A stretch of 64,000 nucleotides of DNA from Escherichia phage JP4. The stretch lies in sequence record PQ330092; one strand, written 5' to 3'. A program made the translations under genes and the position numbers. The notes below the pieces were generated by a model that worked only from the letters and a program-made list of their open reading frames with translations, had not been told where the DNA came from and did not search any database. Positions 3,059 through 9,474 of the stretch are shown piece after piece (within the stretch, counting starts at the first letter, position 1; each line of letters starts with the position of its first letter).

Positions 3059-3086
3059 TTGATTTTTTATACGAATCGTATATTAT
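3059..3086 (+). promoter_or_regulatory. promoter TTGATT-16-TATTAT preceding family A array
   Basis: only promoter-like site between 2868 and 3117. Confidence 0.45.
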
Positions 3087-3116
3087 AGGATTGATATTAT
3101 TTTTAATGGAGTCCCT

Positions 3117-3314
3117 ATGCGTATTTTAACTAAAGAACAGCACCACGAAAGACTTATCAATAACATGGCTATGATAATGTATAAGTCCCATGACCGTGGT
3201 ATTGCCTATAAGCGTGAATTAATTATGGCACTATTCATTGGAACTAACTTTCAGGAAAGGTATGTCAACGATTGGATTTGGTATTTAATTGAAGATATAA
3301 CGAGTAAACTATGA
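3117..3314 (+). CDS. family A paralog (NYQ-motif mini-protein)
   Basis: motif LFIGTNFQERYV; GGAG SD. Confidence 0.75.
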   Translation: MRILTKEQHHERLINNMAMIMYKSHDRGIAYKRELIMALFIGTNFQERYVNDWIWYLIEDITSKL

Positions 3315-3511
3315 AAATGCGTATTTTAAATAAAGAAGAATATCAATCACTGTTACGTAAAAACTTCACAAAGATTTATAATACAGACACACACGTAGAA
3401 CGAATGGAGTTATACCTTTTGATTACTTTGGGAACTAACTATCAGGAAAGATGGGTGATTCAATATATGGATACATTGAAAAATAAAATATTGTCCACGA
3501 GGAAACAATGA
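3311..3511 (+). CDS. family A paralog
   Basis: LGTNYQERWV; ATGA overlap with upstream stop. Confidence 0.75.
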   Translation: MKMRILNKEEYQSLLRKNFTKIYNTDTHVERMELYLLITLGTNYQERWVIQYMDTLKNKILSTRKQ

Positions 3512-3717
3512 AAACTATAACACGAACCCAATCATACGGTCTTATCTTGAAATACATGGACTTAATGGTGGATATCAGCAAAGACCTTCCTAAAACTGAA
3601 ATTCAAGTTGCAAGAGCAGAGATCCGTATGTTGGCTGTACTGAACACAAACCATCAGGAAGAGTATGTTGAAGAATGGATTCGATTTTTAATAGAAGATA
3701 TAAAGAGTAAATTATGA
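3508..3717 (+). CDS. family A paralog
   Basis: VLNTNHQEEYV; ATGA overlap. Confidence 0.75.
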   Translation: MKTITRTQSYGLILKYMDLMVDISKDLPKTEIQVARAEIRMLAVLNTNHQEEYVEEWIRFLIEDIKSKL

Positions 3718-3929
3718 TTATTATAGAAAACTCATATCAATATACTGAACGCATCGCTGCCAGACAACTTGAAATCCTCATAATATACGAAGAGACTTCT
3801 GATTTAAACTTAGCCGAGGTATTGGAAAATGATATACTATTGGGTGCATTCTTAGGAACAGACTATCAGAAGTATTATGAGGAAAAGTATTTGTCATCTC
3901 TTGAGAAATATATCAGGAGCAAATTATGA
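3714..3929 (+). CDS. family A paralog
   Basis: FLGTDYQKYYE; ATGA overlap. Confidence 0.75.
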   Translation: MIIIENSYQYTERIAARQLEILIIYEETSDLNLAEVLENDILLGAFLGTDYQKYYEEKYLSSLEKYIRSKL

Positions 3930-4138
3930 TTTTTTTAACACCAGAAGAATATAAGAAACGTTTCAATTCCGCACAGGGTGAAATCTTACTTATATACCTT
4001 TCAAATGCAGACCTTAACTTATCAAGGGTATTAGAAAAAGATTTACTTATGGGTGCATTCCTTGATACAGACTTTCAGGTGTATTATGTAGGGGAATACT
4101 TAATTGCACTTCAGAATTATATCAGGAGTAAACTATGA
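3926..4138 (+). CDS. family A paralog
   Basis: FLDTDFQVYYV; ATGA overlap. Confidence 0.75.
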   Translation: MIFLTPEEYKKRFNSAQGEILLIYLSNADLNLSRVLEKDLLMGAFLDTDFQVYYVGEYLIALQNYIRSKL

Positions 4139-4362
4139 AACATTTAAGTAATATTGAGAAGATGAGAATTATCATTGATGCATTAAACAAATACGATACC
4201 CTTTTACAAATAAAAGGTTTAACTCGATTGGAACACAAGATAAACACCACCGATGTACGCATGTTGGCTGTACTGGGGACAAACTATCAGGAAGGTTATG
4301 TTCATGAGCACATAGTTGCACTCACTAATTACATAATGGACAAATGTAATGAACATCATTAA
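4135..4362 (+). CDS. family A paralog
   Basis: VLGTNYQEGYV; ATGA overlap. Confidence 0.75.
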   Translation: MKHLSNIEKMRIIIDALNKYDTLLQIKGLTRLEHKINTTDVRMLAVLGTNYQEGYVHEHIVALTNYIMDKCNEHH

Positions 4363-4573
4363 TAACTTTGAATACGAGGCCCGTGCTAAGAGTGCCAGAA
4401 AAAAAGAGAACACCATTTACTTCACTATGATGTACTTACAATGGACTGAAATTGAAGAAAAGGTTGCTGAAGTATGGATGTTGGAATTCATGGGGACGCA
4501 GTATCAGAATAGGTTTGCGGGTGAGTATATCAATGTTCTTATGAAACAAATAGAAAGAAAGGAAAAGAACTAA
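4349..4573 (+). CDS. family A paralog
   Basis: MGTQYQNRFA. Confidence 0.75.
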   Translation: MNIINNFEYEARAKSARKKENTIYFTMMYLQWTEIEEKVAEVWMLEFMGTQYQNRFAGEYINVLMKQIERKEKN

Positions 4574-4731
4574 TGGTTTTCATTAACATATCTGACCAAC
4601 TCGATACTAAACTAGAAGTCGAGCAGAGTGAGGGATGGATGCTGTACTTTCTTGGAACTTCTCATCAAAATTTTTATATCCATGAACACATAGTTGCACT
4701 CACAAATCTAATAAGGGATAAATGTAAATGA
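4573..4731 (+). CDS. family A paralog (52 aa, absent from ORF track)
   Basis: translated by hand: ...WMLYFLGTSHQNFYIHEHIVALTNLIRDKCK; TAATG overlap. Confidence 0.6.
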   Translation: MVFINISDQLDTKLEVEQSEGWMLYFLGTSHQNFYIHEHIVALTNLIRDKCK

Positions 4732-7524: not shown

Positions 7525-7735
7525 TGAATATCATACGATTGTAATGAAAACTAATAGTGCAATTTCTAAAAAATCAAACCCCAAGTACATACTGGAACAC
7601 ACATTCGAAGAACGTCAATTAGCTTTAGTTGAAGCAAAACTTCTTGCACTCCTAGGAACAAACTATCAGGAAGAATACATCAGAAAACTAATATACCTTT
7701 TAACTAAACATATAAGAAAAAGAAAAAATGCATGA
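7493..7735 (+). CDS. family A paralog
   Basis: LLGTNYQEEYI. Confidence 0.7.
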   Translation: MLKNLKILTVNEYHTIVMKTNSAISKKSNPKYILEHTFEERQLALVEAKLLALLGTNYQEEYIRKLIYLLTKHIRKRKNA

Positions 7736-7962
7736 AACACTTGACAGATGATGAACATGGACTTATAGTAATGGATGTAATCAACATCGAATACAAAAAG
7801 TTGATACGCTACCGTTGTTATGAAGATAAGCAACTCGTTCTAGCAGAACAGAAGTTGTTTCGACTCTTAAACACAAACTTCCAAGCACAATACGAAGAAT
7901 CGTATATGTACCTTTTGGCGAGGAAAGCAAAAAGAGATTATGAAAATTTTAAGCAAAGGTGA
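7732..7962 (+). CDS. family A paralog
   Basis: LLNTNFQAQYE; ATGA overlap. Confidence 0.7.
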   Translation: MKHLTDDEHGLIVMDVINIEYKKLIRYRCYEDKQLVLAEQKLFRLLNTNFQAQYEESYMYLLARKAKRDYENFKQR

Positions 7963-8161
7963 TTCAGTAATATTACTTATAGAGAGTTCAAGTAAATTCT
8001 TAAACATAACACTGTCTGATATAGATGAAGATGACAAAGAAGTACTGAGAGCAGATTTAAGAGTACTGTTACATATCGGAACAAACCTACAAGAAGAATA
8101 TGTAGAGTGCTACATTAATGAACTTAAAGAATCAGTACTGAGAAAATGCAAATGCAAATGA
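7940..8161 (+). CDS. family A paralog
   Basis: HIGTNLQEEYV. Confidence 0.7.
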   Translation: MKILSKGDSVILLIESSSKFLNITLSDIDEDDKEVLRADLRVLLHIGTNLQEEYVECYINELKESVLRKCKCK

Positions 8162-8385
8162 AAATCATTTCACCCACAGAATACAACCAACTATTAAGTA
8201 GTTTAATTCTAAAGCTGTTTATAACAAAAAGCATGAAATTACCAGATGATGAAATAAGTATTCTAGTAAGTGAAATCTATGTTCAAGCTACACTAGGGAC
8301 TAACTATCAAGAATGCAATATTAATGATTACATCAATGAACTAAAAAGGTTTATCCAATGCAAATGCGAATCATTACCGAAGTAG
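8146..8385 (+). CDS. family A paralog
   Basis: TLGTNYQECNI. Confidence 0.7.
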   Translation: MQMQMKIISPTEYNQLLSSLILKLFITKSMKLPDDEISILVSEIYVQATLGTNYQECNINDYINELKRFIQCKCESLPK

Positions 8386-8600
8386 AATACCTAACAATCA
8401 TAAATGGACTGTTTTCGAAGTTATTTGCCATTAACACATCAAAACTTCCAGATTCTGATAAAATTATTAAGTTAAATGAAATCTACGTTCAAGCTACTCT
8501 AGGAACAAACTATCAAGAAGCCAATGTGTATAATTACATTAATACACTCAAAAGGGTAATACAATTAAAATGCACAGACAGCACACACACAAACCCCTAG
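8358..8600 (+). CDS. family A paralog
   Basis: TLGTNYQEANV; close paralog of 8146. Confidence 0.7.
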   Translation: MQMRIITEVEYLTIINGLFSKLFAINTSKLPDSDKIIKLNEIYVQATLGTNYQEANVYNYINTLKRVIQLKCTDSTHTNP

Positions 8601-8800
8601 GAACAGCAGAATACATTGAACTAATGGCTGCAAACTTCTCATCCTTTAAGAAACTGATGCAAGAATCAAAGAATGATTTAGAATATCACATCAAAAGTTC
8701 AGATTTAAGATTGCTACTCACTCTAGGAACAGATTCCCAAGAGCGATTTGTCAATGAGCATATTAGAGCACTTTTAAATGGCATCAGGAATAAACTATGA
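8570..8800 (+). CDS. family A paralog
   Basis: TLGTDSQERFV. Confidence 0.7.
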   Translation: MHRQHTHKPLGTAEYIELMAANFSSFKKLMQESKNDLEYHIKSSDLRLLLTLGTDSQERFVNEHIRALLNGIRNKL

Positions 8801-9012
8801 AGGAAATATCAAATCAAGAGTACTTGGCACTATTCAGGAAGAATAATCACAAATATATGGCACTTGATTCAAGAACTGATATAAGTGAACTTGAAAAAAA
8901 TCTTTTGCGTTCAGAGATGATAGTACTGACACTCTTAGGAACACAGCATCAAGAGAGAACTGTTAATTCACACATAGGGATTCTTATGCAGATAGTTCAG
9001 GAAAAGATATGA
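8797..9012 (+). CDS. family A paralog
   Basis: LLGTQHQERTV; ATGA overlap. Confidence 0.75.
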   Translation: MKEISNQEYLALFRKNNHKYMALDSRTDISELEKNLLRSEMIVLTLLGTQHQERTVNSHIGILMQIVQEKI

Positions 9013-9230
9013 GAATCATAACACAACAAGATATTCTTAAGTTCACAAGGGTTCATGCATCTGAATTTGATGCTATATTATCAAAAAGTTACAACAACCC
9101 TTATACACAAGATGTACATTACAGTGAATTATGGATGTATATACTTTTAGGTACAAATAAGCAAGAGCAAGCCGTACAGAAGTATTTGACAGCTTTACGT
9201 GATGCTACTGCTAATGGAGTACATGTTTAA
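9009..9230 (+). CDS. family A paralog
   Basis: LLGTNKQEQAV; ATGA overlap. Confidence 0.75.
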   Translation: MRIITQQDILKFTRVHASEFDAILSKSYNNPYTQDVHYSELWMYILLGTNKQEQAVQKYLTALRDATANGVHV

Positions 9231-9231
9231 T

Positions 9232-9474
9232 ATGAAAGTACTGACAGAACTAGAAATGTATCATAGATTTAATAAGTACTATCATTTACTTAAGCCTATA
9301 CAGAGGATTAAATGTCCATTTGAAGAGAAACAGGTTTTAATCTATGAGCACAAGTTCTTTGTATCATTAGGTACAGATCAACAAGAGTACTATTTGACGT
9401 TGTACTTGATTACATTAATAGATTTAATTCACTATAAAACCAAACAAGCTAATAAAGAGAAATATGAAAACTAA
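9232..9474 (+). CDS. family A paralog
   Basis: SLGTDQQEYYL; start placed at ATG 9232 (MKVLTELEMY). Confidence 0.65.
   Translation: MKVLTELEMYHRFNKYYHLLKPIQRIKCPFEEKQVLIYEHKFFVSLGTDQQEYYLTLYLITLIDLIHYKTKQANKEKYEN

Follow-up and report, generated by a model that had tools for sequence, protein, structure and literature searches.

Twenty-nine small, deeply diverged genes under purifying selection form an array beside the terminal-repeat boundary of Escherichia phage JP4

Escherichia phage JP4 (sequence record PQ330092) was analysed over a stretch of 64,000 nucleotides, in the following called the window, to whose full length all coordinates refer. Between positions 3117 and 9474, 29 small genes follow one another on the + strand. 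Twenty-eight of them are certain members of one protein family, and the remaining one, gene 11, is probably a very divergent member. All copies are under moderate purifying selection. The array expanded through tandem duplications of long ago, unequal recombination removes units from it, and cassettes are exchanged between phages. We are highly confident of this descriptive core. The explanation that best accounts for the locus as a whole is an early, co-expressed panel of diversified small host-aimed binding proteins that would serve takeover of the host or counter-defence; we give this reading an even chance, its functional part being deduced from context.

The region is ~97% identical to that of Escherichia phage PBECO4 and is matched by 35 Asteriusvirus records, in which every gene of the region is annotated as 'hypothetical protein'. 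Asteriusviruses are jumbo myophages of the PBECO4/121Q type with genomes of 350-385 kb, which infect E. coli and Salmonella.

Composition of the array and family membership

The initial annotation, which was made from the letters of the window, had described 29 consecutive small open reading frames (ORFs) between 3117 and 9474, and all of them are present there on the + strand. Start codons were chosen to fit the shared N-terminus; the ATGs at 4963, 6302, 6571 and 9232 replace starts of the ORF list that lie too far upstream. With these motif-consistent starts all 29 ORFs begin with ATG and encode 52-87 amino acids (aa). They span 6,358 bp, and their summed length is 6,597 nt because neighbours overlap. 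Of the length range of 52-90 aa that had been claimed, the lower limit stands, whereas the upper limit drops to 87 aa once several of the listed starts are moved downstream.

A profile hidden Markov model (HMM) built from the 29 genes was compared with all 908 six-frame ORFs of the window and recovered the 29 with E-values of 1e-17 to 1e-27. Testing a model on its own members is circular, and therefore two independent tests were made. The profile PHROG 4148 (unknown function) was matched over its full length by 28 of the 29 array genes at E <= 1e-3 (best value 9e-27). Leave-one-out HMMs, each built without the gene to be tested, likewise recovered 28 of 29 (E 5e-8 to 4e-22). Gene 11 (5199-5450) gave a leave-one-out E of 0.36 and did not match PHROG 4148. 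Profile-profile comparison (hhalign) of its orthologues with the other 28 genes yielded a probability of 68% and E 4.7e-5 over the full length. Size and position of gene 11 fit the family; an E-x-E-M-L-V-L-M-T-G-T-D stretch is present and the N-Y-Q residues are missing ('GTDKK'). A single-sequence AlphaFold2 model of gene 11, which is of low confidence (predicted local distance difference test score, pLDDT, 65), contains three helices with G-T-D at the last turn, so that the fold assignment is tentative. The profile search that had been suggested as a check on the family thus leaves 28 demonstrable paralogues, with gene 11 only probable. The genes of the array are as follows (coordinates, strand, gene and evidence).

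3117..3314, +: member 1, 65 aa; leave-one-out E 3.7e-14; PHROG 4148
3311..3511, +: member 2, 66 aa; leave-one-out E 2.5e-15; PHROG 4148 E 1e-19
3508..3717, +: member 3, 69 aa; leave-one-out E 1.5e-18
3714..3929, +: member 4, 71 aa, isoelectric point (pI) 4.4; closest to member 5, with 52% identity; leave-one-out HMM
3926..4138, +: member 5, 70 aa; leave-one-out E 1.2e-16
4135..4362, +: member 6, 75 aa; 83% identity between its 3' end (4296-4349) and that of member 8; leave-one-out HMM
4349..4573, +: member 7, 74 aa, missing in phage BF17; leave-one-out HMM
4573..4731, +: member 8, 52 aa, N-terminus truncated, missing in BF17; leave-one-out E 2.2e-13
4728..4985, +: member 9, 85 aa; leave-one-out E 3.9e-22
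4963..5214, +: member 10, 83 aa with ATG 4963 as start (ORF open from 4942); leave-one-out HMM
5199..5450, +: gene 11, 83 aa, 'GTDKK', probable very divergent member; hhalign 68%, E 4.7e-5
5434..5649, +: member 12, 71 aa; leave-one-out E 1.1e-16
5646..5864, +: member 13, 72 aa; leave-one-out E 3.8e-22; PHROG 4148 E 4.6e-21
5855..6073, +: member 14, 72 aa; leave-one-out E 2.5e-18
6070..6300, +: member 15, 76 aa, modelled by AlphaFold2; PHROG 4148 E 1.7e-24; pLDDT 96.2
6302..6541, +: member 16, 79 aa, youngest duplicate pair together with member 17; Tandem Repeats Finder period 269 at 6243-6731
6571..6834, +: member 17, 87 aa; leave-one-out HMM; Tandem Repeats Finder
6831..7046, +: member 18, 71 aa; leave-one-out E 2.8e-15
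7047..7301, +: member 19, 84 aa (alternative ATG 7059), 56% identical to member 20
7273..7524, +: member 20, 83 aa; leave-one-out E 1.6e-18
7493..7735, +: member 21, 80 aa, pI 9.9; leave-one-out HMM
7732..7962, +: member 22, 76 aa, 'LNTNFQ'; leave-one-out E 4.8e-8
7940..8161, +: member 23, 73 aa; leave-one-out E 2.6e-17
8146..8385, +: member 24, 79 aa (alternative ATG 8152), 55% identical to member 25
8358..8600, +: member 25, 80 aa; leave-one-out E 2.5e-21
8570..8800, +: member 26, 76 aa; leave-one-out E 3.8e-16
8797..9012, +: member 27, 71 aa; leave-one-out E 3e-16
9009..9230, +: member 28, 73 aa; leave-one-out E 2.5e-12
9232..9474, +: member 29, 80 aa with ATG 9232 as start (ORF open from GTG 9199); leave-one-out E 1.2e-12

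Among the members, the N-terminal motif consists of M1 (100%), K2 (43%), a hydrophobic residue at position 4 (96%), E8 (72%) and Y9 (62%). The C-terminal module comprises L46 (73%), G47 (90%), T48 (100%), N49 (57%), Y50 (53%), Q51 (97%) and E52 (60%), followed by L62 (97%), I66 (73%) and K69 (79%). PHROG 28039 is a companion profile that covers the C-terminal half of the family. The undersized member at 4573-4731 proved to be real; it is an N-terminally truncated copy that is 100% conserved in phage G17.

Four outlying copies had been reported at 10775, 10936, 23821 and 24017, and the same HMM recovers exactly these four. The corresponding ORFs of the scan are 24002-24205 (E 1.6e-12), 10930-11220 (7e-7), 23815-24036 (5e-6) and 10751-10984 (3e-4); the next-best of the 908 ORFs has an E of 0.55.

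10775..10987, +: degenerate outlying copy; HMM E 3e-4
10936..11223, +: degenerate outlying copy; HMM E 7e-7; PHROG 4148 E 6e-5
23821..24036, +: degenerate outlying copy; HMM E 5e-6
24017..24205, +: outlying copy, 63 aa; HMM E 1.6e-12; PHROG 4148 E 1.2e-16

The array also differs from its surroundings in base composition. Its coding strand (3117-9474) contains 39.6% A and only 16% C, and its AT skew reaches 0.24, compared to ~0.02-0.07 in most of the window.

Coding status and selection

The ratio of nonsynonymous to synonymous divergence (dN/dS, omega) was determined for reciprocal-best orthologues of the window and five phages (G17, fEgEco12, ph0011, 121Q and A4). Pooled values are 0.32-0.40 in the annotated frame (bootstrap 95% interval 0.26-0.48), compared to 0.85-1.30 in the two shifted frames. 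Omega is 0.17 at columns that are conserved among paralogues and 0.50 at variable columns. Furthermore, the codons of the motif vary at synonymous positions: Leu is encoded by TTA, CTA, CTT, CTG and TTG, Gly by all four codons, Thr by ACA, ACT and ACG, and Gln by CAA and CAG.

These data bear on the possibility that the periodicity is a DNA-level repeat, for example of binding sites or packaging signals, and not a series of genes. The period of ~215 bp and the position next to the terminal-repeat boundary would be compatible with such a repeat. However, the motif codons differ at synonymous sites, the dN/dS signal is specific for one frame and thus that of coding sequence, and Tandem Repeats Finder detected a single unit-length repeat in the array, which consists of genes 16 and 17 (6243-6731, period 269, 76% match). 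The DNA-level repeat was rejected because the motif is conserved as protein and not as DNA, and we regard its probability as negligible. The initial statement that the reading frame is maintained throughout was therefore correct.

Predicted fold and surface

AlphaFold2 was applied to gene 15 with an alignment that consisted of the 29 paralogues only. The resulting model (mean pLDDT 96.2, predicted template modelling score 0.80) contains helices at residues 8-17, 19-26, 33-47 and 54-73, and a beta-bridge between Ile4 and Thr51. According to these helices and the bridge, L-G-T-N-Y-Q-E forms the turn between the last two helices, and the bridge links the invariant Thr to the N-terminal strand. 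Hydrophobic residues with the spacing of a helix-packing core occupy the remaining conserved positions (L46, Y54, V55, Y58, I59, L62 and I66). The motif therefore looks fold-determining rather than catalytic in the model. Independently predicted models of members from phages UB, slurp01 and 121Q that are deposited in BFVD superpose with template modelling (TM) scores of 0.66-0.94 despite a sequence identity of ~25%. A shared helical hairpin had been proposed as a target for structure prediction, and a shared helical bundle is indeed predicted.

The surfaces diverge. The predicted pI values range from 4.4 to 9.9 and the net charges from -6.5 to +7.8; every copy is hydrophilic, and no Cys or His residue is conserved among them. 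A Foldseek search of the PDB gave a best E of 1.9, and a sequence-profile search of the PDB gave nothing below E 1. Scans of the members against Pfam, NCBIfam and PADLOC returned only sub-threshold noise for single members, and no similarity in sequence or fold to characterised anti-defence proteins or to components of defence systems was found. We read the family as a predicted small, soluble helical bundle of ~70 aa without an informative structural relative. As no tool gave a functional homologue, the function has to be deduced from context.

Evolutionary dynamics and spread of the family

Paralogues in the window are on average 25.5% identical (range 12-56%). Adjacent genes share 31.8% identity, compared to ~25% for genes that are two or more positions apart (permutation p < 1e-4). 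This excess similarity of neighbours is the mark of an old tandem duplication. The closest pairs are 19/20, 24/25, 4/5 and 16/17.

The number of contiguous members differs between phages. It is 29 in the window, ~30 in G17, 28 in fEgEco12, 27 in ph0011, 26 in vB_Ec-M-J, 23 in 121Q, 20 in A4, ~19 in Turkey5 and ~17 in JNE01. For one change in number, the event can be reconstructed. Phage BF17 lacks genes 7 and 8, and the alignment blocks on both sides overlap by 50 bp in BF17 (L013 1492-1541). The missing 378-379 bp correspond to the spacing of a 54-nt direct repeat (4296-4349 and 4674-4727, 83% identical), whose two copies are the 3' ends of gene 6 and gene 8. Because the deletion equals this spacing, the loss is attributed to unequal homologous recombination between paralogues.

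The identity of orthologues is mosaic; in comparison with G17, genes of 100% identity stand next to genes of 51-64% identity. In phages JNE01 and Turkey5 (L004 and L005), window positions 1-3000 are matched with 94-95% nucleotide identity, and from ~3000 onwards similarity is essentially undetectable for more than 15 kb. The collapse at this point indicates that the array opens a hypervariable region that starts exactly at the repeat boundary. The terminal repeat thus seems to be exchanged or homogenised separately from the hypervariable block.

The family has a narrow distribution. By means of tblastn it was found only in the same 35 Asteriusvirus records. A word-indexed search of 5.8 billion proteins gave 144 clusters; all matches with a named source come from Escherichia phages or from assemblies of E. 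coli, and the long sequences among them measure 340-385 kb. In an exhaustive HMMER scan of 1.84 billion cluster representatives, no more than 84 clusters reached E <= 1e-3, and each of these consists of small proteins that carry the motif of the family. A more distant relative is the 101-kb metagenomic sequence L009, which contains a run of ~12 members that are ~20-40% identical to those of the window. Downstream of its array, a gene for a small membrane protein and then the PHROG 13866 family follow as in the window. One PHROG 13866 copy is interleaved inside the L009 array. The narrow search results and the array of L009 argue that the array is old within this phage lineage and restricted to it.

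In some Asteriusvirus genomes, a gene located ~1 kb downstream of the array encodes a fusion protein of 269 aa, P0192 (6001-6810 of L011 and L012). Its first ~65 residues are a family domain, and its C-terminal region of ~200 aa matches neither Pfam nor PHROG, so that the fusion offers no clue to the function. A search of IMG/VR for P0192 gave no related locus.

Gene junctions and probable extent of the transcription unit

The 28 junctions of the array comprise 12 ATGA overlaps, one TAATG, 11 overlaps of 10-32 nt, and four separations of 1-29 nt. The earlier description of almost every junction as ATGA or TAATG was thus overstated (13 of 28); what holds is that the array is free of gaps, the largest being 29 nt. 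A Shine-Dalgarno match of at least 4 nt is found 4-17 nt upstream of 19 of the 29 starts, compared to 23.5% of random positions within the array. It is the conserved C-terminal codons of the gene before that spell these ribosome-binding sites; I-R-S-K-L, for example, is encoded as ATC AGG AGT AAA CTA TGA. The synonymous divergence of orthologues, 0.276 in gene interiors, drops to 0.175 over the first four codons and to 0.117 over the last four. The low value at the gene ends is in line with a double duty of these codons in coding and ribosome binding. Taken together, the junctions have the features expected for termination-reinitiation coupling, and we infer such a coupling from them.

Inside the array, no terminator-like site was found on the + strand. 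The array continues unbroken into genes of another family, and the first true intergenic gap holds a further promoter-like site.

9464..10178, +: two overlapping genes of another family, PHROG 13866, which follow the array without a gap
10180..10208, +: sigma-70-type promoter-like site TTGACA-17-TATAGT with TG upstream, 11/12 consensus, conserved in 7/8 relatives

The relatives that conserve the second site include JNE01 and Turkey5. Because there is no break before 10178 and a conserved promoter-like site follows, the transcription unit probably extends from ~3093 to 10178 and is longer than the array. Thus, the architecture fits the proposal of one polycistronic, translationally coupled unit, whereas the proposed end at 9474 does not hold, as the unit likely runs to 10178. 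The shared extended sequence around the site at 10180 (cTTGACAGTAC...TGATATAGTAC) suggests a phage-specific class of early promoters.

Terminal-repeat boundary and left flank

The array begins next to the right boundary of the direct terminal repeat. The annotation of phage vB_Ec-M-J gives its direct terminal repeats a length of 21,525 bp, and independently for fEgEco12 repeats of 20,993 bp were determined with PhageTerm and confirmed by restriction digest (PMC13070987). The right repeat boundaries of both phages map to position ~3019 of the window, and the array starts ~100 bp later at 3117. From left to right, the following elements are arranged in front of the array.

2658..2867, +: final gene of the direct terminal repeat (PHROG 17833), outside the family; left landmark that precedes the array in all related phages
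2896..2961, +: nested, terminator-like hairpin with a 13-bp stem AAAAAAGTCAAGG/CCTTGACTTTTTT; A-run before, T-run after
3008..3027, no strand assigned: GC-rich motif GGGCGGGTAACCTTAGCGAC holding the right boundary of the terminal repeat (near 3019); boundary mapping, conservation in nine phages
3059..3086, +: sigma-70-type promoter-like site TTGATT-16-TATTAT, 9/12 consensus, conserved in 7/8 aligned phages
3108..3111, +: Shine-Dalgarno sequence GGAG of the first cistron, whose ATG is at 3117

The core columns of the motif GGGCGGGTAACCTTAGCGAC are invariant in nine Asteriusvirus phages, very divergent ones included, which makes it a candidate for an end-processing or terminase recognition site. 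The hairpin has an inner ATGCGTT/AATGCAT stem within the outer stem of 13 bp, and folding of the RNA of 2866-3060 gave a z-score of -3.06. Phage A4 carries a different 12-bp inverted repeat at the same position. The hairpin looks like a bidirectional terminator and would as such shield the array from transcription of the terminal repeat.

The promoter-like site at 3059-3086 is kept as TTGACT-16-TAAAAT or TATTAT in seven of the eight aligned phages, including the very divergent JNE01 and Turkey5; the better form TTGACT-16-TAAAAT is present in most of them. The exception is A4, in which an extra gene of 819 nt is inserted ahead of the array. In BF17 the upstream DNA is wholly different and carries another gene (L013 1-303), with the breakpoint exactly at the 'cctATG' of the first array gene. 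As this replaced flank has its own promoter-like site TTGACA-17-TATGAT at the same position, a putative promoter precedes the array even where the flank was exchanged.

The site at 3059-3086 had been called the only promoter-like site of the array. Its conservation speaks for the site, but it is not unique, since other hexamer pairs within the array reach the same score or a higher one, the best being two internal sites at 4737-4765 and 7741-7769 (11/12). In total, promoter-like hexamer pairs are not in excess over the shuffled expectation. Both internal sites are spelled by N-terminal codons of the family (K-H-L-T encoded as AAA CAC TTG ACA), and for this reason their conservation is inseparable from that of the protein.

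Functional interpretation

In the favoured reading, host RNA polymerase would make one early mRNA of ~7 kb with 29 family cistrons and two others. Ribosomes would pass from cistron to cistron by termination-reinitiation, via the ATGA overlaps and the embedded Shine-Dalgarno sequences, so that all paralogues would be made together. The products would be non-virion accessory proteins, for which host targets appear likelier than one dosage-amplified activity. A conserved scaffold, a varied surface and charge, a variable copy number and the exchange of cassettes argue that each copy binds something different and that the copies do not merely amplify a dosage.

Our confidence in the parts of this reading differs. 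Early polycistronic expression of the array is rather likely. The putative promoter is of the host sigma-70 type. The array stands first in a long run of small genes of unknown function, all on one strand, which ends in T4-type early functions (RNA ligase 1, polynucleotide kinase-phosphatase and DNA ligase). In PA5oct, a distant relative from the same RaK2-like group, small terminal-repeat genes show high transcription at 5 min, and phage production, being sensitive to rifampicin, depends on host RNA polymerase (PMC7318152); an early timing of the JP4 array would follow from this by analogy only. Host-directed binding is a tentative assignment to which we give somewhat less than an even chance. 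An anti-defence role in particular must be considered unlikely, if conceivable. In an equally speculative and not very probable extension, the array would be a 'binder library' with a fold new to solved structures. Each of its ~30 co-expressed variants would neutralise one particular allele or family of a host factor that is polymorphic, for example a defence-system protein or a host-range determinant. Such a locus would be to the virus what a defence island is to a bacterium, and would partly account for the broad persistence of Asteriusvirus in E. coli populations.

Several observations weigh against the panel of early binding proteins. The expression of every array member is a prediction from the sequence. 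The match of the site at 3059-3086 to the consensus is weak in the window, and Salmonella phage SD-2_S15 (L014) lacks window positions 3032-3113, which hold the promoter-like site and the Shine-Dalgarno sequence of the first gene. The same phage lacks positions 8174-8728 with genes 24-26 (the two deletions are located at L014 296-303 and ~5360); both may be assembly artefacts, as records of the SD series are 25-40 kb shorter than their relatives. The internal sigma-70-like sites may be real promoters. Binders that take part in an arms race are predicted to be under positive selection; every site class, however, has an omega below 1, and only isolated columns come close to 1 in a per-column comparison of pN/pS, which pooled 484 non-independent pairs and is descriptive and crude. 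The virion proteome of phAPEC6 (62 proteins, PMC7247149) speaks for the non-virion part of the reading, as it contains no protein of 7-10 kDa and none of gp348-gp548, the numbers among which the array is expected from its genome coordinates and not from locus tags; small proteins, however, are easily missed by virion mass spectrometry, which weakens this point.

The same proteome is relevant for the idea that the products are internal proteins, packaged in the virion or injected. Small proteins encoded near a genome end would suit it, and other phages do inject small internal proteins. Given that none is found among the 62 virion proteins and that the promoter is of the sigma-70 early type and not of the late type, we consider this idea hardly credible. 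Rather more can be said for a neutral filler, that is, for leftovers of duplication without individual function that enlarge the genome to fill a bigger capsid (ratchet of Hua et al. 2017). The sole published comment on the array reads it as genome expansion by tandem duplication, copy numbers vary between ~17 and 30 with units lost by recombination, and the omega of 0.32-0.40 is relaxed compared to typical core genes. A filler should not, however, retain 29 of 29 intact ORFs with orthologues across phages, nor an omega that is well below 1 in frame and ~1 out of frame. A paralogue identity of ~25% places the duplications far back in time, and still the copies have survived; the distant relative L009 has kept an array of the same synteny, and core and turn residues are strongly conserved (omega 0.17). 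This makes a neutral origin of the whole array decidedly improbable.

Two further alternatives assign the proteins a role within the phage. They could be regulators or nucleic-acid binders that act on the phage's own genome and tune its transcription, its translation or the architecture of its DNA, as small helical proteins of which 12 of 29 are basic (pI >= 8.9), encoded at the head of an apparently early region, might suggest; a precedent is the proposal made for the zinc-ribbon expansion of Bacillus phage G. With charges from -6.5 to +7.8, on the other hand, the surface is not uniformly basic and a common nucleic-acid-binding surface is missing. Moreover, neither a helix-turn-helix nor another DNA-binding fold was among the significant matches, and repeated candidate operators were not found beyond the coding similarity itself. 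We therefore take this alternative to be improbable. Alternatively, the proteins might be subunits of one hetero-oligomeric intracellular assembly, in which coupling would fix the proportions of a mixed scaffold or lattice. Coupling of cistrons without gaps typically goes with stoichiometric complexes, and one core fold is conserved in all members; but a copy number of 17-30 and a membership that vary between close relatives, together with the swapping of cassettes, are hard to fit to a defined complex, the surfaces are not conserved, and oligomerisation is a supposition. Such an assembly is very improbable.

Relation to known systems

As an object the array is already known, because genes 319-341 of phage 121Q are the orthologous locus. 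The 121Q array was noted in one sentence and ascribed to tandem duplication (Hua et al. 2017, mBio, PMC5646251), and a 2026 review repeats it as evidence for genome expansion (PMC13282480). The literature calls its genes 'very similar' or 'highly similar', whereas the paralogues analysed here average ~25% identity and are under purifying selection; a defined position, a putative promoter, a coupling architecture and a predicted fold have also been added here. PHROG 4148 is an automatic cluster and silent on arrangement and role. In our literature search we did not find descriptions of the deep divergence of the copies and the selection on individual copies, of the placement ~100 bp beyond the repeat boundary with a conserved promoter-like site and a terminator-like hairpin, or of embedded ribosome-binding sites, an unclassified fold with a role of the motif, and recombination-driven changes in copy number.

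In kind, the array is ordinary, namely a lineage-specific expansion of a small orphan gene family of phages; it is unusually large and orderly. Bacillus phage G, also a jumbo phage, possesses a lineage-specific expansion of ~35 zinc-ribbon genes for which a regulatory role was suggested (Iyer et al. 2021, PMC7824862). Both cases have in common ~30 copies of one tiny domain, but the domain is a zinc ribbon in phage G and a predicted metal-free helical bundle here, and the phage lineages differ.

Small genes at a genome end with a long direct repeat, transcribed early by host RNA polymerase, are known from SPO1 (gp37-gp60), from the pre-early region of T5 and from the terminal-repeat (Tre) genes of Kayvirus. 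The JP4 array resembles these blocks and that of PA5oct in comprising many small genes of unknown function near a genome end with a long direct terminal repeat. Those blocks, however, lie inside the repeat and consist of mostly unrelated genes, often with their own promoters, whereas the array lies outside the repeat and has one family and one promoter-like site. It thus fails the defining feature of terminal-repeat takeover blocks. The MGF110, MGF360 and MGF505 families of African swine fever virus and the terminal families of poxviruses are tandem paralogues beside terminal repeats, with copy numbers that recombination makes variable between isolates, and they are thought or have been shown to modulate host range and immunity. 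The likeness to the array is an analogy in genome dynamics only; proteins and hosts are unrelated and there is no homology. Acb2/Vs.4, Ocr, AsiA-type and anti-CRISPR proteins share with the family the size class, the all-helical structure, the non-virion nature and the likely early expression.

In jumbo phages, ~80% of the genes are of unknown function. The array makes up ~5% of the gene count in a coliphage genus that is considered for therapy and persists in many E. coli isolates. Contrary to the near-identical padding of the literature, it is an ancient, selected and highly diverged family that appears wired for joint expression, probably at DNA entry. If its products are host-directed binders, the array would represent a compact, naturally occurring set of small inhibitors and would mark the evolution of the host range. 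If they turn out to have no phenotype, it would be a clean test case for the retention of apparently redundant genes in large viral genomes.

Other genes of the window

A second small paralogous family, PHROG 13866 with the motif LS.EEYFQ.SLV.D, has three members directly after the array (9464-10791). Further paralogous groups were detected by an all-against-all BLASTP comparison. They comprise seven ORFs of ~150-165 aa (19945-22245 and 27121-28831), four ORFs of ~120-160 aa (18738-19935 and 25357-25719), and three more at 45390-46270. Pfam gave no match for any of the large ORFs that were tested between 12 and 37 kb, and the whole window of 64 kb contains no tRNA gene and no Rfam family.

Genes for a T4-type RNA ligase 1 (Rnl1; 50403-51545), a polynucleotide kinase-phosphatase (PNKP; 52369-53301), an ATP-dependent DNA ligase (59601-61019) and two metallophosphoesterases (56709-57467 and 61039-61830) are located downstream on the same strand as the array. 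Rnl1 and PNKP are the tRNA-repair pair that counters anticodon nucleases. All but one of the ORFs of at least 140 aa in the window are on the + strand.

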